Below, piece after piece: positions 6,264-32,000 of a DNA stretch of 32,000 nucleotides. Each line of letters opens with the position of its first letter. Positions within the stretch are counted from its first letter, which is position 1. Made by a program: the position numbers and the translations under genes. The DNA is from Candidatus Hadarchaeota archaeon (GTDB lineage Archaea > Hadarchaeota > Hadarchaeia > Hadarchaeales > Hadarchaeaceae): assembly GCA_964514965.1 (NCBI GenBank), contig CAZETV010000001.1:360001-392000 (forward strand), in the 5' to 3' direction. Below the pieces are notes generated by a model. It did no database searches, was not told the origin of the DNA, and saw only the letters and a list, made by a program, of their open reading frames with translations.

Positions 6264-7356
6264 CTAGGGTTACCTCCACCGCTACCTCGCGCACTATTGT
6301 TGACACGGTTCTGTCCACAGTTAAGTTGGGATCGGTAGACCCGGAGTATTGGTAGGATGGTCTACTACAGTCACCCGGTATCATTATTTGGCCATCTTTG
6401 ACGAGATTCGTGCCGTCGCTGGTCGTCAGCACTAGGTGGTCGGGGCTTAGTTTACAAAAATCCCATTCTTGACCGCCCCACAGCGTGTCGATCGGAACCC
6501 ATTCAACACCCGGCAGATACACGAACGCCCATGCGTGCCCCATCCGTGTAATATCAGTACCGTATTGAGGTTGATACGCGTAACCAGCCACATGTTTCGC
6601 TGGTATGCCAGCTGCGCGAGCGAGAGCGATAAACAAATTGGTGTACCCACTACAGTCCCCCATGCGATTTGTATACGCCCAGAGGGCGCTGTGCTCTTCG
6701 TTGTACACCACGTAAGTTAGATAATCTTGAACAAAATCGAATATCTGTTTTGCCTTGTAGTAGTAGTTAGAATAATTATCGGTCAGTTCTTGCGCTTTAC
6801 TGTAAATCTCCGAATCGTCACTTTCCCACAGGTGGGCAACAGGCTGTGTGTATTGGAGCTTCTCTGCTGGGATGTTGCCATACACCATGTCAGGAGTAAT
6901 CCCCGGGGCGACGTAATCAACTTTCAAAACTTGCGTTATGACAATCGTTTTTGATGCTCCAGCGGTAATTGTGCCCAACGACGCTTTCACGATGCGATTG
7001 TCATCTGTGCGGATGATTTCATAGCTATCAAGCGAGTCGCTCAACTGGATGTTCTCGCTCAACACTTGCTGGCTTGCCCAACCCGATTTATTATCGAAAA
7101 TGAAAAGGGGCTCAACAACCACGTTAGTCGCTGCGACAGACCCGTTGTTGGAAACCAGATATGTTTTCTGAATGCGATAAACCACAGAATTCGTTGACTC
7201 ATCTGCGCTCGCTAGGGGCTGGATAAGCAACACGAACAAGACCACTCCCAGCAGCAAGAACCTTCGTACGTAAATCCCCAACTCAACTGATCGGGCCACA
7301 TATAAAAAGTGTTCAAAAATTGATGCTTGATTTTCCCCTTTATAAGGAACTTTCAT
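6187..7356 (-). CDS. Secreted transglutaminase-like (Cys-His-Asp) protein
   Basis: Transglutaminase core GDCSGYTNLFIALARAAGIPAKHVAGY ... GHAWAFVYLPGVEWVPIDT. Signal-like segment VRRFLLLGVVLFVLLIQPLASA, where RRFLL is Tat-like. A more likely start is TTG at 7281 or GTG at 7299, about 18-25 nt downstream of a TTTTTATAT box. Confidence 0.75.
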   Translation of the reverse strand: MKVPYKGENQASIFEHFLYVARSVELGIYVRRFLLLGVVLFVLLIQPLASADESTNSVVYRIQKTYLVSNNGSVAATNVVVEPLFIFDNKSGWASQQVLSENIQLSDSLDSYEIIRTDDNRIVKASLGTITAGASKTIVITQVLKVDYVAPGITPDMVYGNIPAEKLQYTQPVAHLWESDDSEIYSKAQELTDNYSNYYYKAKQIFDFVQDYLTYVVYNEEHSALWAYTNRMGDCSGYTNLFIALARAAGIPAKHVAGYAYQPQYGTDITRMGHAWAFVYLPGVEWVPIDTLWGGQEWDFCKLSPDHLVLTTSDGTNLVKDGQIMIPGDCSRPSYQYSGSTDPNLTVDRTVSTIVREVAVEVTLDVTSQIQNGVWSWRAAVQNRGYSNN

Positions 7357-7377
7357 CCAAAACCTCGGCGGGATGCA

Positions 7378-8046
7378 ATGGATGAGAAATCTATGACGAA
7401 ACTGAGCCTGCTCTGCTCGCTGACGGGATTGACGGCGATTTACGCCGCGGCGATTCAGGCCAGCCCAACGATGACCCCCATCGCGAGCCTGAACGATGAA
7501 TTCGTCGGCCTACAGGTGGCGATTTCGGGGCAGGTTGTAGACCTCTATGAACATCCAGACGGGCACCTCTTCCTGAAGCTCAAGGACGGCTCAGGAGGCG
7601 TAGTGAGCGTCCCGGTGTTCGCTCGGGTGCGGAGTGAGCTGAGCGAGCCTATAGAGTTCCTAGATGTAGTTCAGGTGACAGGTGAGGTGAAGCTCTACGG
7701 AGGCCAGCGCGAAGTAATACCCGGGCGAGCGGGTGACTTGCGGGTGGTGCACACCGCGCCGGTCAAACTTTCGAGCCTGGGCCAGGAGAACGCGGACGTA
7801 CCGGTGAAGGTCCAGGGCACCATCGTAGAGCGCGAGATAGTGGGGGGCGGGAATCTACTCCTGACGCTGCGCGAGGACTGTGGCCAGCTGCTGGTATTCG
7901 TCCCTGCGTGGGTTGTCGAGGATGGCCTGCCCGAGCTCCATGTCGGCAACGTGGTGCGCGTCAACGGATGGCTTCAACTCTACAACGGCGAGCTCGAGCT
8001 GAAGCTCAAGAGTGCATCGCACTTGCAGGTCATCGAGGCGGCCTAG
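7378..8046 (+). CDS. Membrane-anchored protein with two OB-fold (tRNA_anti-like) domains
   Basis: The track ORF starts at TTG 7327 and overlaps the divergent gene. ATG 7378 or 7393 is more plausible because CTTTATAAGG lies upstream. TM segment LSLLCSLTGLTAIYAAAI. Two OB-like units: VAISGQVVDLYEHPDGHLFLKLKDGSG..VQVTGEVKLYGGQREV and VKVQGTIVEREIVGGGNLLLTLRED..VRVNGWLQLYNGELEL. Confidence 0.6.
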   Translation: MDEKSMTKLSLLCSLTGLTAIYAAAIQASPTMTPIASLNDEFVGLQVAISGQVVDLYEHPDGHLFLKLKDGSGGVVSVPVFARVRSELSEPIEFLDVVQVTGEVKLYGGQREVIPGRAGDLRVVHTAPVKLSSLGQENADVPVKVQGTIVEREIVGGGNLLLTLREDCGQLLVFVPAWVVEDGLPELHVGNVVRVNGWLQLYNGELELKLKSASHLQVIEAA

Positions 8047-9294: not shown

Positions 9295-9663
9295 TTACTT
9301 TTTGACTGACCTAAACAAGATGAGCACGGCGACGATGGCGAGCACGAGCCCTGGAATCACTAGCGAGAGTCTTAGCGTAGCCGTCGCTAAGCCCGGTTGA
9401 ATCAACCCAAAAACCAATATTACTAACCCCAACACGAGCAGGAGCGGCATGAAAGTTATTTGCGGTGACGCCCGAAGCCAGCGCTCGATAGTGTCGCCAA
9501 TCAACCAGAAGTAACTGAGCGTAAGTACGGCCCCAACCGCGATGAACACTATATCGACTAACATGTCCTGCATCATGTAAGCTCCCTTGATCAAAAGACA
9601 GACCCCAATCACGAGGGCGACTATTGCAACGTAAGCTTTAACAGATTTCATCGTAAAGTTCAT
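9295..9663 (-). CDS. Small hypothetical integral membrane protein (about 4 TM)
   Basis: 122 aa, almost entirely hydrophobic helices. No recognisable family. Confidence 0.5.
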   Translation of the reverse strand: MNFTMKSVKAYVAIVALVIGVCLLIKGAYMMQDMLVDIVFIAVGAVLTLSYFWLIGDTIERWLRASPQITFMPLLLVLGLVILVFGLIQPGLATATLRLSLVIPGLVLAIVAVLILFRSVKK

Positions 9664-25875: not shown

Positions 25876-26008
25876 GAAAATACTTGGGCCCAACCGCGAG
25901 TTTAGTGGTTTGATTTTCCATGCATGCAGTGCACGCTTTGGCTATGATTTATCCAGATAATTTTTTCAAATTTTTATCCAATATAAACAACCCACACCCA
26001 AATCCTCG

Positions 26009-26272
26009 GTGGGAGAGATGACCACTTTACCCTTTGTTGTCGTGCTAGCCATAGCCTGGCACATAAGCTTAGCTTTGCTCGAGCGCTCACGCCATCCCAA
26101 ACAGACTAGACCCCCGCTGGCGAAGCTCCTGCTTTCAGTCGAGGTGGATCTGCTCAGGACACTCAGGAGCGAACTCAAACGGCGTCTTCAACTCAGGCGA
26201 GAGCCTATGAGTGAGCGGAAACTGTCAGAAGTTGAGAAAAGGTTGGAGGAGCTGGGTGGAGATGAGAGATGA
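26009..26272 (+). CDS. Small hypothetical protein: N-terminal hydrophobic segment plus charged coiled coil (first gene of the ATPase operon)
   Basis: Probable ATG at 26018 (MTTLPFVVVLAIAWHISLALL), then RSELKRRLQLRREPMSERKLSEVEKRLEEL. A TTTTTATCCAATATAAAC box lies about 30-45 nt upstream. The 3' end overlaps the next start by 11 nt. Confidence 0.5.
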   Translation: MGEMTTLPFVVVLAIAWHISLALLERSRHPKQTRPPLAKLLLSVEVDLLRTLRSELKRRLQLRREPMSERKLSEVEKRLEELGGDER

Positions 26273-26864
26273 GTTGACATTTGAGTCATTCTTGGCCGCG
26301 GTTAACCGTTTTCTGGAATTGCCGCTCAAAGATGTGAGTTCAGCGGGTGGACTCTGGCCGAAACTAGATAACATGCTAGATTGGGCCCTCGGTGCAATCA
26401 AATTCGATACACCCCACCATTTGCGCTTGGCCAAGCTTGTATCCTCACTTAAAGCTGCGGCTACGAAATTTCTACAATCTCTGCTCAACGCGAAGCGTGG
26501 CGGCTACCTGCGCGATGATTGGACGCGCTTTGCCGAACTCGACTTCATCAAACTCAAAGACGAGGTTCTGGCCTTAAGAGAATTTTTGGTTGATGAAAAA
26601 GATTTTCTAAAGTTTTCTTTCTTGCGGGCGAGGTTGACAACTTTCAGCAAGGTTGACCCGGAGATATTGTTTAAAGAGCTGCATGAGGGGCAGGCGATAA
26701 GCGAGCGCACATGGGTACTCCTCATGACTCAGCCGAACGCGTGGCGAAAAGCGCTCAAAGACCGCAGGATTTCTGACGAGCTGACGCGCATATCGAGCTG
26801 GTTTCTCGATCTGCAGGAGACGAGGAGGGCACGAAAGTGTTTGGTGAGAAAGACGGCAAAGTAG
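26262..26864 (+). CDS. Hypothetical all-helical protein (about 200 aa), no recognised family
   Basis: The track ORF starts at 26211, but ATG 26262 (MRDELTFESF) gives typical stop/start coupling with the upstream gene. Composition is protein-like and there is no TM segment. Confidence 0.55.
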   Translation: MRDELTFESFLAAVNRFLELPLKDVSSAGGLWPKLDNMLDWALGAIKFDTPHHLRLAKLVSSLKAAATKFLQSLLNAKRGGYLRDDWTRFAELDFIKLKDEVLALREFLVDEKDFLKFSFLRARLTTFSKVDPEILFKELHEGQAISERTWVLLMTQPNAWRKALKDRRISDELTRISSWFLDLQETRRARKCLVRKTAK

Positions 26865-27115
26865 TACTTGCTGAGCACGGACGGTGGATAGCCAGCCTTC
26901 GGGACGACGCGCGGATGCTTGAGCAACGCCTCAGAGGTCTAGAGCGAAGGGTGGCGACGCTTGAGGCAAACCTCACGGAGCTGACGAAGCTTTACGGCAA
27001 GCTCGACCTATCACAGGCCCAGCTCGGAGATGAAATTGCTCGGCTGGCTTCTAGAGTCGATGTCTTGATTGGAAAACTTCACAGGAGTGTAAAGTCCGGG
27101 AGGCGGAAGGGATGA
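26837..27115 (+). CDS. Hypothetical coiled-coil protein (about 92 aa)
   Basis: Heptad-rich LEQRLRGLERRVATLEANLTELTKLYGKLDLSQAQLGDEIARLASRVDVLIGKL. The start is uncertain (GTG 26837 or ATG 26915). The stop overlaps the ATPase start as ATGA. Confidence 0.5.
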   Translation: MFGEKDGKVVLAEHGRWIASLRDDARMLEQRLRGLERRVATLEANLTELTKLYGKLDLSQAQLGDEIARLASRVDVLIGKLHRSVKSGRRKG

Positions 27116-29307
27116 ACTGCAAGCCAGCGATAGTCAGGCTGGGGGATGAACGGGTATTGAGGTTCAAGTGCGAGGGCTGCAAGCACGGCGCCTCAATCGA
27201 GGAATCAGAAGCCTGCATGCGCGAGGTCGTGCGTGCGCTCGCCGAGTATCCAGAGGTTAGTGCTGTACTTCTCTCAGACATCTACGAGCGCGAATACAAA
27301 GGCCCTAGCTTGGCTGAACTTGAAGAGATAGCAAAAATATTCAAGGCGTGCAAAAGCTGGCCATTCGCCCACCTCGCGCCGACCGATTGCAAACGTTGCG
27401 AGTCCGAGCGCAGGCAACAGCTCAAAGACGTACTCGATGTGATGCCGGGAGACCCTGCACGAGCGCGAGAAGAACTTGAGGTCATCGTTCGAGAATTGCG
27501 GGCGAGGTCCAAGCAGGGAGCAGAAAAGTGCAAGCGATGCAGAACGCTCTTCATCGAGCGCGCTTTAGCTCCAATGTTGTCACCACTGAAATGCGCGAAG
27601 CTAGCAAGCACCGGGCGGAAAAATCGCGAGGGATACGCTAAAATCCTACGAGCGCTCATCCGCCCGTGTTTCATGAGCTCCCGCCTCGTACTTGAACCAC
27701 CAACGGGAGCCGAGTTAGTCGACGCCTATCGGGTTGGAAATAGTGAGGTTCGAATTTACCGATTAGAAGGTACGCTTCAGCACCTCTACTTCCTAATTCT
27801 TCCCGAGCATAGACTCCCCCACAAACAGGTGCTGCTCTTGCGCCGGGCACGCCAAGTTCTTCTGGAGCAACGACCTGAGTTCGAACTCAACCCGCTTCGA
27901 GCGCGAGAGCAGCTCACGCACCTCGGTGGGAACCTCATGACCAAACTGGTGATTGATGAAAAACTGGATGTCACTAGGGAGGAGGTGGAGGAGCTAGCCC
28001 AACACCTAGCCAGATTTACTGCGGGCCTAGGAGTGCTCGAAGTTCTGCTAGCAGACGCCCGAGTACAGGATGTCTATATCGATGCACCAGTTGGGCGAAC
28101 GTCAATCCACATCTATCATCGAGATTTTGAGGAATGTCTCACGAACATCCACCTTGCGCCTGACGATGCTGAGTCGTTAATCTCTCGTTTCCGCGCCATC
28201 AGCGGAAGGCCGTTCTCTGAGGCCGACCCGGTGCTCGATCTGAATCTCGAGGGCGTGAGGATAGCGGCGATCGGGCATCCTCTGAGCCCGGAAGGGTTGG
28301 CGTTTGCGCTGCGCAGGCATAAGCCGACCCCATGGACTTTGTCCCAGTTCATCAAGGCAAAATTCCTGACTCCCTATGCTGCCGGCTTGCTCAGCCTGAT
28401 GGTCGACGCCCAGACATCATTGCTAGTGACGGGCAGCAGGGGGTCGGGTAAGACTTCCTTGCTCGGCGCCCTTATGCTTGAGCTCCTGCCGAAGTCTCGC
28501 GTTATCGTACTAGAGGATACTTCCGAGCTTCCCATCGAGCAACTCCGAATTCTAGGGTTCAAAATCCAATCGCTCCGCGTGCAGTCGGCCGTTTCGGGCA
28601 CTTCTGCTGAACTTCGAGCTGAGGACGCGCTTCGGGCTGCTCTTCGCTTGGGTGAGTCGATACTTGTGGTAGGTGAGGTCCGAGGCGAAGAGGCTCGCGT
28701 TCTCTACGAGGCGATGCGGGTAGGGGCTGCGGGCAACTCGGTCATGGGCACAATCCACGGCGCCACGACGCGAGATGTCTTCGAGCGCGTGGTCTATGAT
28801 TTGAACATCCCAGCCAGCTCCTTCAAAGCTACGGACGTTATCATCGCGGCAGCGCCCATTCGACCGCGAGGCAGCGTTGCTCGGATGCGCAGGGTAGTAC
28901 AGGTAACCGAGGTCCGCAAGGGCTGGCGAGAAGATCCAATGAGCGAGGAGGGCTTCGAAGATTTGATGAAATACAATCCAGCAGAGGACGAGCTCGAACC
29001 GACGCGAGCGCTCACTGAACTAAAGTCGCAACTAATCAAGGACATCGCCAGAAAGTGGGGCACTAAGCCGAGGGAGGTCTTGAGGAATCTCGAGCTTCGG
29101 GCGGAAGTCCAAGGAGCGCTTGTCGAAGCGGCTAATAGACTCAAAAAACCCGAGTTGCTTGAAGCTGAATTCTCGATGCGCTCGAACCTCGTGCTCCATA
29201 CTTTGCTAGAAAAACAATTGCGAAATAGACAGATTAATTATCGCTCAATTTTTGAATGCTGGCGCTCTTGGCTTCGGGATTCGGCTAGGAAATACACAAG
29301 GGTGTGA
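27112..29307 (+). CDS. Type II/IV secretion-family ATPase (archaeal FlaI/ArlI/PilB-like) with a roughly 290-aa Cys-rich N-terminal extension and a C-terminal helical extension
   Basis: VQDVYIDAP...FALRRH precedes the ATPase core. Walker A is VTGSRGSGKTS (28432-28455), the Asp box is VIVLEDTSEL, Walker B is ILVVGEVRGEEA and the His box is VMGTIHG. The N-terminus carries CEGC, CKRC and CKRC. Confidence 0.85.
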   Translation: MNCKPAIVRLGDERVLRFKCEGCKHGASIEESEACMREVVRALAEYPEVSAVLLSDIYEREYKGPSLAELEEIAKIFKACKSWPFAHLAPTDCKRCESERRQQLKDVLDVMPGDPARAREELEVIVRELRARSKQGAEKCKRCRTLFIERALAPMLSPLKCAKLASTGRKNREGYAKILRALIRPCFMSSRLVLEPPTGAELVDAYRVGNSEVRIYRLEGTLQHLYFLILPEHRLPHKQVLLLRRARQVLLEQRPEFELNPLRAREQLTHLGGNLMTKLVIDEKLDVTREEVEELAQHLARFTAGLGVLEVLLADARVQDVYIDAPVGRTSIHIYHRDFEECLTNIHLAPDDAESLISRFRAISGRPFSEADPVLDLNLEGVRIAAIGHPLSPEGLAFALRRHKPTPWTLSQFIKAKFLTPYAAGLLSLMVDAQTSLLVTGSRGSGKTSLLGALMLELLPKSRVIVLEDTSELPIEQLRILGFKIQSLRVQSAVSGTSAELRAEDALRAALRLGESILVVGEVRGEEARVLYEAMRVGAAGNSVMGTIHGATTRDVFERVVYDLNIPASSFKATDVIIAAAPIRPRGSVARMRRVVQVTEVRKGWREDPMSEEGFEDLMKYNPAEDELEPTRALTELKSQLIKDIARKWGTKPREVLRNLELRAEVQGALVEAANRLKKPELLEAEFSMRSNLVLHTLLEKQLRNRQINYRSIFECWRSWLRDSARKYTRV

Positions 29308-31083
29308 TTGAGCTTGCTCGAAAAGTTTTACACGGAGGCTTGCCATTTAGCAGGTAAATTAAGATGGTTCAGGCTGGAGCAGCAAGCAAACGACGAGTTA
29401 CGTGAAAATTTGGAATCCGCTGCGTTGGGGGTTCGGGCCGAGGAGGTCGTTGCACTGGCTTTACTCGCTAGTTTTCTTTGCGCGGTATTTGTAGCAGGAA
29501 CAGTAATCCTGTTTACAACGGCTGAATCCCCGCTAACAGCTCTCCCGATTGCACCGATGCCTTTGATAGCTTACGTGCTCGTTGGATGGTACCCAAAATG
29601 GCGCGCTGAGCAACAACGAATTCACGGCCTAGGAGAGGTTCCGCTGTTGATTAATTACATCACGATGTCAATGAAAGTCGTCCCAAACTTAGAGCGAGCC
29701 ACGGCCTTCGCTGCCGAAAACGTGGATGGTCTCCTTGGAATGGACCTTAAGGATGCTCTGCGTCGCACATACCTACGCGCCCATGCCGGGGTCGGGGAGG
29801 CTCTGACGGGATTCGCGAAGCACTGGGGAGAATGCTGTAAAGAACTCAATCGCTCAATCTATTTGCTTCGAAGCTCTGTGTCGGAAAGGACCGAAGTCGC
29901 CCGCTTGCGGACACTAGACCGCGCCCTTGAGCTGAGTCTTCGCGGCACGCGCGACCGGATGATAAACTTCGCGGCAGGGCTCCACCTCCCAACGCTCCTT
30001 ATCTACAGCGTAGGCGTGCTCTTGCCCTTAGTGTTGGTGGCCATCTTGCCAGTGCTCTCGGTTATCGATATCAGCATCAATGCCATCCAAGTCTTCTCAA
30101 TCTATTGCATCGCTCTCCCGCTTGGAGTATACGTGCTCAGCCGTTGGACGTTGGCGAAGCGTCCAGCCACATTCTCACCACCTAAGGTGTCGATTGAAAC
30201 GAGCCGAACCCGCGCCCTTATGCTTGCGGGACCACTTACGGCCGCACTAATGGTAATCGGACTCTTCTCACCTGTCGCAGACGATTTTCGCGCTATTTTG
30301 CTCCTTTGGGCCCTAACGCTTGGCATCACCACATACTTCCATTTGACCACAGCGCGGGCTTTCGAGAGACGTGGTCGCATCGAACAGATAGAGGGAGAGT
30401 TCTGCGACTCACTCGTTCAACTGGGCAACCGGATAAGCGAAGGGCGCCCGGCCGAGGATGCACTCAAACATGTCGCGGACACCATGCAAGGGAGCGAGCT
30501 TGCAGGTGTTTTCGCCCAAGCATCAACTAACATCCGACTGGGGAGCATGGGGCTTCGAGCCTCACTCTTCGACCCAGAGCGTGGGGCGCTCCAAGAAATC
30601 CCCTCGCGAACAATCCAAAGCGTACTCTGCCTGCTTGTAGAAGTTATTGAGCGAAACACTCGAGCGGCTGGAGCTGCGATCCTGAGAACGGCTGATCATC
30701 TCAATGAGCTGAAGCAGGTGAAGCTCGACATCCGACGCTCACTTGGGGAGGTCGTGACATCAATGCGTTCGGTCGCTCTCTTCTTTGCACCATTCATCGC
30801 CGCTATAGCCGCGCGTATGCAGAGTTTCCTCGCTTCGAAGACAGCCCCCGTTAGTCTCTGGGGCCCGGGAACCGGTGTCTCGTCGTCAACCTTCCTGTTC
30901 GTGCTCGGGTTCTATGTTGTGTTGCTAACCGCGACCCTGATGAGCTACGCGATCGAGATCGAAACCGGAGATGACCCAGTATCAAAGCGCGTGGCGCTCG
31001 CACGGGCCTTACCCATCGCACTTGGGGTTTTCACCTTGGGTTCGATCGTCGGGAAATACATGCTCACCGCAATCATCGGCTGA
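29308..31083 (+). CDS. FlaJ/ArlJ/TadC-like polytopic platform protein (T2SS-F family)
   Basis: 591 aa with a TTG start abutting the ATPase stop. About 9 TM helices are arranged as two membrane blocks separated by soluble helical regions, the usual size and position for the platform partner of FlaI/PilB-type ATPases. Confidence 0.7.
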   Translation: MSLLEKFYTEACHLAGKLRWFRLEQQANDELRENLESAALGVRAEEVVALALLASFLCAVFVAGTVILFTTAESPLTALPIAPMPLIAYVLVGWYPKWRAEQQRIHGLGEVPLLINYITMSMKVVPNLERATAFAAENVDGLLGMDLKDALRRTYLRAHAGVGEALTGFAKHWGECCKELNRSIYLLRSSVSERTEVARLRTLDRALELSLRGTRDRMINFAAGLHLPTLLIYSVGVLLPLVLVAILPVLSVIDISINAIQVFSIYCIALPLGVYVLSRWTLAKRPATFSPPKVSIETSRTRALMLAGPLTAALMVIGLFSPVADDFRAILLLWALTLGITTYFHLTTARAFERRGRIEQIEGEFCDSLVQLGNRISEGRPAEDALKHVADTMQGSELAGVFAQASTNIRLGSMGLRASLFDPERGALQEIPSRTIQSVLCLLVEVIERNTRAAGAAILRTADHLNELKQVKLDIRRSLGEVVTSMRSVALFFAPFIAAIAARMQSFLASKTAPVSLWGPGTGVSSSTFLFVLGFYVVLLTATLMSYAIEIETGDDPVSKRVALARALPIALGVFTLGSIVGKYMLTAIIG

Positions 31084-31442
31084 GCAAACGTTTAATTAAA
31101 TCACAGAAATTACCCCAAAATACACTTCTAAATCCATTATGTTAGTCATATTTGATGCCTATTACCTTAATATATAGATTATAGATGAAAAATTTTTGGC
31201 CAATACTCTACTTAAATTTTTAAAATGCTAAAAAATGAAAAAAATTAAATTTAAAAATATTAAAAAAATTTTTGGTGCGATATTAGTCAAAAAAAAAAAA
31301 AAAATAATTAAAAATAGAAAATTAACATTATTTTACCTTTAATCCTTTCTCCATCTTTATTATTTTAATAAAAATTAGTCCCAACTTTTTTAGACCAAAA
31401 ATTTATATCTAAGTAAAAATCGATTAAATTTGAGGAATTTAA
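31084..31442. other. Extremely A/T-rich intergenic tract with an A16 run and repeated AAATTTTTGG boxes; contains the lrp promoter
   Basis: A16 at 31289-31304. TGAAAAATTTTTGG at 31186-31199, AAAAAAATTTTTGG at 31262-31275, and the inverted copy CCAAAAATTT at 31395-31404 overlapping TTTATATC (31402-31409). Confidence 0.7.
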
Positions 31443-31871
31443 ATGGATGGAAAAGACTACAAAATAATTGAAGCTCTCCAAGAAGGTGCTAGAACACCTC
31501 TGCGGAAGATATCTAAGCGGGTGCATATGAGCGAGTCTGCGGTCCGGAAGCGAGTGAAACGGCTAGAGCACGCTGGAGTGATCGAGGGGTACACCGCCGT
31601 TGTCAATCCATCAAAGCTGGGATACAACACTATGGCTTTTGTCGACTTGGATGTTATACCGGACAAACACCGAGAGGTCATAGACGGGCTAATGAAGTTA
31701 AGGGAAGTAAGAAAGGTATTAACTTCGACTGGCGAGTATGGGGTAATGAGCATGGTCTGGGCACGTGACAACAGTGAACTGAATAATATTCTCCAAAAAA
31801 TTGGTGGAATTGAGGGTGTCAAAAAGACCAGCACAGTAATAATCCTTGAACGAATAAAAGACATGTGCTAA
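31443..31871 (+). CDS. lrp: Lrp/AsnC-family transcriptional regulator
   Basis: DYKIIEALQEGARTPLRKISKRVHMSESAVRKRVKRLEHAGVIEGYTAVVNP is the HTH_AsnC part, followed by a RAM/ACT-like domain (AFVDLDV...VLTSTGEYGVMSMVWARD). 142 aa. Confidence 0.9.
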   Translation: MDGKDYKIIEALQEGARTPLRKISKRVHMSESAVRKRVKRLEHAGVIEGYTAVVNPSKLGYNTMAFVDLDVIPDKHREVIDGLMKLREVRKVLTSTGEYGVMSMVWARDNSELNNILQKIGGIEGVKKTSTVIILERIKDMC

Positions 31872-32000
31872 TCGAGGTAGTGCTCAACCAAGTAGATAAA
31901 ACAAATCTATCACTCATAGCAGCAAAAATAAGAGGGTAAACCGTCATCGCAGCGGGGAAGCACACTTGCCGATTAGATTCCCTAGTTAGTAGAACTAGTG

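Follow-up and report, generated by a model that had tools for sequence, protein, structure and literature searches.

A Hadarchaeota operon for a type IV filament motor and a candidate pilin operon encoded in trans

What purpose does a filament motor serve when the genes around it encode no filament? This question is raised by five consecutive open reading frames (ORFs), O1 to O5, which occupy positions 26009-31083 of the forward strand in a 32,000-nucleotide (nt) stretch of a Candidatus Hadarchaeota archaeon (contig CAZETV010000001.1, positions 360,001 to 392,000; hereafter the window), and of which the last two encode a secretion ATPase and its membrane platform. Hadarchaeota are uncultured subsurface archaea, and we know of no description of their cell-surface biology; a literature search likewise returned nothing on pili in this phylum. 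We argue here that the five genes are the motor module of a Hadarchaeota type IV pilus, the pilins of which are supplied in trans by a six-gene operon elsewhere in the same genome, and we put the probability of this reading at roughly 70%. On this view the system is a Hadarchaeota-specific variant of an already catalogued clade of archaeal type IV pili and not a new kind of machine; what is new in the variant are two accessory protein families, O1 and O2, and the separate pilin operon. The “pilin-less” look of the locus would stem from the boundary of the window, together with the fact that archaea usually encode their pilins in trans. ATPase/TadC operons that lack pilins and use those encoded elsewhere are common in Euryarchaeota, PilB3/C3 with PilA1-6 being one example (PMC4858521).

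The five-gene motor operon

ORF analysis of the window verified the coordinates and the coupled junctions from which the initial annotation had deduced a single operon. O1 (26018-26272 from an ATG, with an alternative GTG at 26009; 84 amino acids, aa) overlaps O2 by 11 nt, its stop lying at 26272 and the start of O2 at ATG 26262, or at GTG 26256 in the database copy P0121. O2 (26262-26864; 200 aa, or 202 aa from the GTG) overlaps O3 by 28 nt, between the GTG start of O3 at 26837 and the O2 stop at 26864, and O3 (26837-27115; 92 aa) shares a common ATGA with O4 at 27112-27115. O4 (27112-29307), a 731-aa secretion-superfamily ATPase of the FlaI/GspE type, directly abuts O5, a 591-aa platform of the TadC/ArlJ/PilC type that starts with TTG at 29308 and ends at 31083.

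That these last two genes encode the motor of a type IV filament machine, as had been proposed from four nucleotide-binding boxes and about nine membrane-spanning segments, is borne out by both family and structure matches. O4 matches Pfam T2SSE (PF00437) at 8.8e-20, above the cut-off, and its best NCBIfam model is FlaI (NF058587; 2.4e-46, 158.6 bits against an equivalog cut-off of 550). Its four boxes, namely Walker A (G441..K447..S449), the Asp box (E468, D469, T470 and E472), Walker B (G521-E527) and the His box (G546-G550), are all invariant in an alignment of 15 homologues at 43-100% identity, in which the protein is conserved along its whole length. A FlaI/GspE2-type N-domain and ATPase core (residues ~180-600) is preceded by a cysteine-rich extension (residues 1 to ~180, with invariant C20, C23, C35, C93, C96, C140 and C143) and followed by a helical C-terminal extension (residues ~630-731, with invariant W649, W717 and W720). 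The CxxC pairs in the former suggest metal binding, rather than the disulfides proposed in 2016. Sequence matches in the PDB were to afGspE (9e-32), CpaF and FlaI; the AlphaFold model of O4, with a predicted local distance difference test score (pLDDT) of 81, retrieved FlaI (4ihq, 1.3e-27) and afGspE (2oap, 2.1e-27) in Foldseek and superposes on both over ~530 columns with a target TM-score of 0.67-0.76, leaving the ~180 N-terminal residues and the C-terminal helices unmatched. O4 is identical to the database protein P0001 (P-numbers denote database proteins throughout, and L-numbers the 138 loci that were compared) and 76-89% identical to proteins named Hadesarchaea or Hadarchaeota. Some of its homologues (P0022, P0063) reach 1224-1226 aa and contain intein and LAGLIDADG domains (PF14890, PF14528); two DPANN loci (L082, L070) have ATPase ORFs of 1965 and 1279 aa that may be similar cases. 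O5 passes the gathering cut-off of Pfam T2SSF (PF00482) with 26.0 against 25.2 bits (9.5e-6) for one repeat, the second repeat being undetected by sequence, and hydropathy gives 8-9 hydrophobic or transmembrane segments and two cytoplasmic domains. In 60 of 78 related loci, the gene next after the ATPase encodes a platform protein.

The arrangement is not peculiar to this genome. Seeded with O2, a scan of metagenomes recovered 53 loci, and the order O1-O2-O3-O4-O5 is kept in every long-enough contig among more than 50 from Hadarchaeota, down to ~35% O2 identity, while the flanks vary; a genome with a 48%-identical ATPase, for instance, carries the same five genes (84, 197, 87, 723 and 591 aa) among other neighbours. 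Since the order persists where the flanks change, the five genes constitute a conserved module and not a chance arrangement, which settles in its favour the neighbourhood check that the initial annotation had called for. The SMC/ScpA/ScpB-like genes directly upstream of O1 in one lineage, called from sequence motifs, were set aside as an unrelated neighbouring unit.

The three small upstream proteins are of a different kind from the motor. O1 starts at ATG 26018, as indicated by an alignment of 45 homologues from a common start, and hydropathy gives it a single N-terminal transmembrane segment (residues 3-21, with a conserved LA..WH inside). It follows the pattern M-x-S/T-hydrophobic(18)-RSR, with a basic stretch, RSRHPKQTR, and then a conserved amphipathic, coiled-coil helix. 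Because basic residues follow the transmembrane helix, its C-terminus is predicted to be cytoplasmic, an N-out/C-in topology that would be the reverse of that of a pilin. No [KR][GA] cleavage motif was found by the class III scan after the real start of O1, which begins directly with the hydrophobic helix. A class III-like ...K-A/AGE... motif (K-A/K-S) that appears before O1 was rejected, since it falls before the conserved start codon, on the TATA box and spacer described below; no start codon occurs between the stop at 25958-25960 and position 26009, and the apparent conserved “signal peptide” of extended O1 ORFs is thus explained by this promoter stretch.

O2 and O3 have no transmembrane segment by hydropathy, and appear to be a soluble helical bundle and a soluble coiled coil, respectively. 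Two motifs, DW.RFA..D...KDE..A.REF and AISERT, are invariant in O2, for which an AlphaFold model (pLDDT 85) predicts an all-helical fold of nine helices. Each of its 75 close homologues is unnamed and devoid of Pfam domains, and an exhaustive profile search among 1.84 billion proteins recovered 55 representatives, all of 170-210 aa. In O3, an N-terminal LAEHGRW motif is conserved across 50 homologues. In agreement with the initial annotation, none of O1-O3 bears a class III signal peptide.

Pilin genes in trans and a shared promoter type

Domain and class III scans of the window found no pilin, archaellin, A24 prepilin peptidase, Arl accessory or KaiC gene, as the initial annotation had reported, and no tRNA gene either; a single ORF flagged by the class III regular expression (9295-9663, minus strand) was rejected as a pilin, being a protein with four transmembrane segments that adjoins TctA. 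The suggestion made from this absence, namely that it could mark a new kind of machinery, is not supported, however, when all Hadarchaeota loci are scanned. In one lineage, three tandem class III genes lie 2.1 kb downstream of O5 (L126, 9047-10309), and in another (L137, 10001-14531, plus strand) an operon of six genes, with products of 129, 157, 141, 150, 226 and 701 aa, starts 8.8 kb downstream of a 593-aa T2SSF platform gene. In all six products, a hydrophobic helix comes after a short basic leader that ends in K/R-G. The same operon is preserved in another three contigs (L138, L139 and L140), its products in Hadarchaeota measuring in general about 128, 150, 141, 150, 226 and 700 aa, and one contig, Ga0315282_10000023, carries both the pilin operon (L137) and an O1-O5 operon (L114).

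For the first pilin gene, 158 homologues were found, at 63-100% identity and exclusively from Hadarchaeota-type sources; it is far more conserved across the phylum than is O2. One of these homologues, P0281, displays the class III pattern in that its leader, MEEKG, ends in [KR]G and is followed by a hydrophobic helix of ~20 residues (MEEKG, then QLMGVPIKLVMALVIGTMAMG; the N-terminus continuing MEEKG, then QLMGVPIKLVMALVIG...). P0281 lies on the same contig as the window: it, the window ATPase (P0001) and O2 (P0121) are each recorded, from the same sources, on a single contig of 1,030,738 nt. That the pilins might be encoded just outside the window had been foreseen in the initial annotation as the outcome that would speak against its own proposal, and the first gene of such an operon, on the window's own contig, is what we found. 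Convergent with the pilin operon stands a gene on the minus strand for a UBA-like/coiled-coil protein of 122-130 aa (L137, 14514-14906; L140, 8675-9043; L139, 15056-15430). This protein is homologous (4e-11) to a ~230-aa UBA-like/coiled-coil neighbour of DPANN ATPases, a homology that ties the pilin operon to this ATPase family regardless of distance.

A second connection between the two operons is provided by their promoters. The promoter and 5' region of O1 (25969-26020, plus strand) comprises a T-rich stretch resembling a B recognition element, a TATA box, AATATAAAC, at 25980-25988, the spacer AACCCACACCCAAATCCTCGGTGGGAGAG and the ATG at 26018, and this layout of ~50 nt (T-rich stretch, TTWTAAAC, a spacer of the type CCTYCACCCAAAGCCTCGGCGGGAGAG, start codon) is kept before O1 in all Hadarchaeota loci, with a mean column identity of 70% in our promoter alignment A3. 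From the usual archaeal distance between TATA box and transcription start, we infer that O1 is transcribed from ~26009-26012, with a leader of at most 8 nt. An nhmmer profile made solely from the regions that precede O1 was run over 540 kb of Hadarchaeota sequence. It matches the O1 site of the window at 8.7e-10 and also all five pilin-operon promoters, that of L140 with the top score of the whole search (56 bits) and that of L139 weakly (E 0.01). Apart from the O1 and pilin sites, it has only ~9 others in the entire 540 kb, among them the promoters of three of the four UBA-like/coiled-coil genes (L137, L138 and L140, with no match in L139). Where both operons lie on one contig (Ga0315282_10000023; L114 and L137), the O1 and pilin promoters are identical at 40 of 50 positions, as counted in alignment A3, and share an identical core of 15 nt. 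The 14-mer CGACCAAAGCATCG occurs among the 138 loci only at O1 promoters, at pilin promoters and at one tRNA promoter; the tRNA gene (Ala or Val) lies ~300-450 bp upstream of O1 in one lineage, and it is this gene that bears the extended promoter (L106, 6819-6867; L112, 7351-7396; L113, 74-118), which other tRNA genes in the same loci lack. To judge by these sequences, the motor operon and the pilin operon share one type of promoter and are probably co-expressed.

In the mechanism that we propose, O4, presumably as a hexamer, would dock on the polytopic platform O5, and the two would pull prepilins out of the membrane for polymerisation, the substrate being a P0281-type major pilin together with five minor pilin-like proteins, whose prepilins would be cleaved by an A24 peptidase. 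O1 as a membrane anchor, O2 as a helical bundle and O3 as a coiled coil would surround the ATPase on its cytoplasmic side as a scaffold or regulatory switch tethered to the membrane, and this assembly may contact the cysteine-rich N-terminal domain. The proposal follows the logic of ArlX or ArlCDE in the archaellum, or of GspL and PilMN in bacteria.

Several observations weigh against this explanation. First, the proteins of the pilin operon have no significant match to Pfam or to any described pilin family, only sub-threshold ones to DUF7289, DUF7284 and T2SSI, and comparison of the set with DUF7283, DUF7284 and DUF7286 by hhalign gave probabilities of at most 12%; although the best pairs in each row fall in the same gene order, probabilities this low lead us to claim no orthology. 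Second, none of the Hadarchaeota sequences examined yielded a prepilin peptidase, and in syntenic relatives the motor operon and the pilin operon are more than 8 kb apart. Third, the promoter element is also found before a tRNA gene and two unrelated genes and may therefore mark a promoter class rather than a dedicated regulon. Finally, the roles of O1-O3 are proposed from architecture and co-occurrence.

The distribution of the same element invites an alternative in which the motor, pilin, UBA-like, RadC-like, OB-fold and, weakly, radA genes would form one regulon serving a pilus for DNA exchange or uptake, with O1-O2-O3 as a control module acting on the cysteine-rich N-domain and possibly sensing metal or redox state. 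Within the window, the ~33-nt element that runs from TATA box to start occurs, even when three mismatches are allowed, only before O1, before a RadC-like JAB gene (element at 1865-1897, gene at 1460-1861, both on the minus strand) and before a gene for a nucleic-acid-binding OB-fold protein (tRNA_anti-codon; element at 7341-7373, gene at 7378-8046, plus strand), the true start of which is the ATG at 7378 and the N-terminus of which contains the hydrophobic stretch MDEKSMTKLSLLCSLTGLTAIYAAAI. A weak copy is also found before radA in L005, OB-fold genes recur near DPANN-type loci (cluster 6, nine loci), and the logic would be comparable to that of the Ups/Ced systems of Sulfolobales or of bacterial competence pili. 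However, an element that also stands before a tRNA gene may simply be a strong promoter type, the radA match is poor (E 0.004), the association with RadC and OB-fold genes comes from one genome only, and no DNA translocase of the ComEC, Ced or HerA kind was seen. We therefore regard a dedicated DNA pilus as possible, if doubtful.

The remaining genes of the window are housekeeping genes, encoding FeoB, two DtxR-type repressors, a CCA-adding enzyme, QueC, a proteasome subunit, TctA, HsdM and an Lrp/AsnC regulator. The last of these (31443-31871, with AsnC domains) is separated from O5 by a very A/T-rich intergenic tract (31084-31442), in which direct reading reveals oligo-T and oligo-A runs and a long poly-A near 31290-31305; the fraction of G and C over 31001-32000 is 0.37. 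This tract holds the promoter region of the Lrp/AsnC gene and likely also marks the end of the O1-O5 transcription unit. An Lrp/AsnC regulator stands downstream of O5 in the closest relatives as well (L084, L086 and L089), whereas in other lineages it is not found at this position.

Relatives of the ATPase and competing explanations

The proposal of an uncatalogued ATPase/platform clade is not supported by the relatives of O4. A scan of 185,579 species genomes recovered full-length relatives (residues ~7-727, 35-40% identity) in Woese-, Pace-, Nano-, Aenigm- and Nanohaloarchaeota, Thermoplasmata, Hydrothermarchaeales and metagenome-assembled genomes (MAGs) labelled Methanosarcinales/ANME-2, with shorter matches in Halobacteria. 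In a neighbour-joining tree of the ATPase core (75 sequences pre-selected for similarity to the query, without bootstrap, and hence indicative only), Hadarchaeota cluster with Hydrothermarchaeota, Thermoplasmata and ANME-2, a large branch of DPANN sequences is sister to this cluster, and cetZ-adjacent halobacterial ATPases form the nearest outgroup, with FlaI, afGspE and CpaF further out. The halobacterial loci recovered contain CetZ, a DUF7310 coiled coil, DUF7311, a cysteine-rich ATPase that starts with a comparable C..C...C motif region, TadC, DUF7283, DUF7284 and a 1000-aa DUF7286 protein; they are the cetZ2-adjacent pilB2/C2 regulon, for which no biological role is known (PMC9856176). To judge from their sequence features, the ATPase group of the window and this outgroup fit the description of subclade 4F of Makarova et al., which is characterised by a cysteine-rich extra N-terminal domain in the ATPase, a coiled-coil intracellular partner and an FtsZ-like gene nearby, and which has members in methanomicrobia and nanoarchaea, the pilins of the latter being unidentified (PMC4858521). 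The coiled-coil partner of 4F, arCOG07564, would correspond to Pfam DUF7310. Also typical of 4F, whose ATPases are a subset of arCOG01818, are a dedicated major pilin of the PilA family (arCOG02981) and an S-layer-like protein; what was observed in Hadarchaeota is the six-gene class III operon in trans.

Comparison of neighbouring genes within the group separates what is shared from what is not. Loci labelled DPANN or Methanosarcinales (L006-L068, for example L007, 6990-9850) carry a conserved divergent set consisting of a coiled coil of ~136 aa, a protein of ~230 aa in which a linker joins a UBA-like N-terminus to a coiled coil, and two to three paralogous proteins of ~190 aa with 4-5 transmembrane segments; a relative of the ~230-aa type (cluster 3) in L014 passes the Pfam cut-off for FlaC_arch. 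O3 reaches an hhalign probability of 77% (E 2e-5) against the ~136-aa coiled coil and of only 10% against halobacterial DUF7310, and DUF7310 was the best Pfam family for four of ten O3 members, with a best E of 3.4e-6 and always under the gathering cut-off. Probabilities for O1 and O2 were below 1% against the DPANN-type neighbour families and against halobacterial DUF7310 and DUF7311, which indicates no relationship. The claim that O1-O3 fit no known partner accordingly survives in part. It stands for O1 and O2, neither of which has a Pfam, NCBIfam or PDB match (for O2, including no Foldseek match to the PDB below E 0.1) and which by these searches are new families confined to Hadarchaeota. 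It is not supported for O3, which in sequence resembles the coiled-coil partners of related ATPase systems, a partner type already noted for such loci. From this comparison of neighbours, the common core of the clade comprises ATPase, platform and coiled coil, the other partners are lineage-specific, and O1 and O2 are Hadarchaeota additions.

Some further neighbours were encountered in these loci. Close to the DPANN-type loci, genes for PRC-barrel, M50-like and OB-fold proteins turn up repeatedly. In the Hydrothermarchaeales locus L003, a MinD/ParA gene (7272-7991, plus strand), a 176-aa coiled coil and an O3-like gene precede the ATPase; the first of these recalls the TadZ/CpaE and FleN/MinD genes linked to euryarchaeal pili, and the second was considered as an O2 homologue and rejected after comparison.

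Do such loci point to a machine that works without pilins altogether, in which the ATPase and platform, together with O1-O3, have been re-purposed for secretion, uptake or membrane remodelling and build no filament? In most lineages there is no pilin in the operon or directly beside it, and the DPANN-type relatives have multi-transmembrane and coiled-coil neighbours among which no pilin was recognised, the ~190-aa paralogues being without family assignment; this parallels the failure of Makarova et al. to find pilins for the nanoarchaeal members (PMC4858521). Nevertheless, the same Hadarchaeota genomes hold the six-gene class III operon, which is preceded by the same promoter and linked to the motor within 2-9 kb in two lineages. 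In addition, a Peptidase_A24 gene (L031, 7872-8708, minus strand; 1.4e-12) divergently adjoins the 732-aa ATPase of a Thermoplasmata MAG, a close relative, and the halobacterial outgroup locus contains pilin-like genes. A motor that acts without pilins is therefore unlikely.

A remnant of an archaellum motor (ArlI/ArlJ) that has lost its filament and stator genes is highly improbable. Although FlaI is both the best NCBIfam model and the top structural match of O4, its 158 bits fall far below the cut-off of 550, afGspE and CpaF score equally well, and FlaI branches outside the whole clade in the neighbour-joining tree; moreover, neither the window nor the more than 50 related loci contain ArlB/C/D/E/F/G/H or ArlX genes, the window has no KaiC-like gene, and the substrates encoded in trans are not archaellin-like. 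Finally, the idea that only the ATPase and platform are real and that O1-O3 are spurious or non-functional, which their lack of database annotation might suggest, is hardly credible given that their order, lengths, motifs and invariant residues are kept across ~50 contigs at 35-100% identity, that they are translationally coupled and that the fold predicted for O2 is a confident one.

Comparison with known systems

Taken together, a pilus motor with pilins in trans provides Hadarchaeota with a complete-looking list of type IV pilus parts, namely the operon for the motor, that for six pilin-type proteins and a promoter common to both, and adds two accessory families found nowhere else. It also draws attention to the ~750-aa ATPases with cysteine-rich N-domains as a large and experimentally untouched clade that extends across DPANN, Thermoplasmata, ANME-2, Hydrothermarchaeota and Hadarchaeota, the lineage-specific cytoplasmic coiled-coil or helical partners of which offer a handle on the scaffolding or regulation of archaeal pilus motors. 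The overall picture of type IV filament systems as a class is unchanged.

The nearest described counterpart is subclade 4F with pilB2C2 (PMC4858521, PMC9856176), which shares with the window a cysteine-rich N-domain in the ATPase, a TadC of its own after the ATPase and a coiled coil just upstream. The window ATPase differs in that it falls on a separate branch, whose members measure ~730-770 aa and have a longer N-domain as well as the C-terminal helical extension, and the window has O1 and O2, whereas it lacks CetZ, DUF7311 and pilins within the locus. In this last respect it is closer to PilB3/PilC3 of Haloferax volcanii (clade 2), likewise a pilin-free motor operon with pilins elsewhere in the genome (PMC4858521); that system, however, has an ATPase of another clade without a cysteine-rich N-domain, no genes of the O1-O3 type, and pilins of the PilA family (DUF1628-type).

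With the ArlI/ArlJ motor of the archaellum, the window shares the ATPase fold, the platform type and the presence of coiled-coil cytoplasmic accessories (ArlX in Crenarchaeota, ArlC/D/E in Euryarchaeota), and ArlX is, like O1, anchored by an N-terminal transmembrane helix. Unlike the archaellum, it has no archaellins and no ArlF/G/H, and O1-O3 show no sequence similarity to ArlX or ArlCDE. The bacterial Tad pilus (CpaF/TadA with TadB/TadC) and Archaeoglobus afGspE (PDB 2oap) provide the closest solved ATPases, and the Tad platform is of the T2SSF family, as in the window; in contrast to Tad, the archaeal system is without outer-membrane parts, and there is no TadZ in Hadarchaeota.

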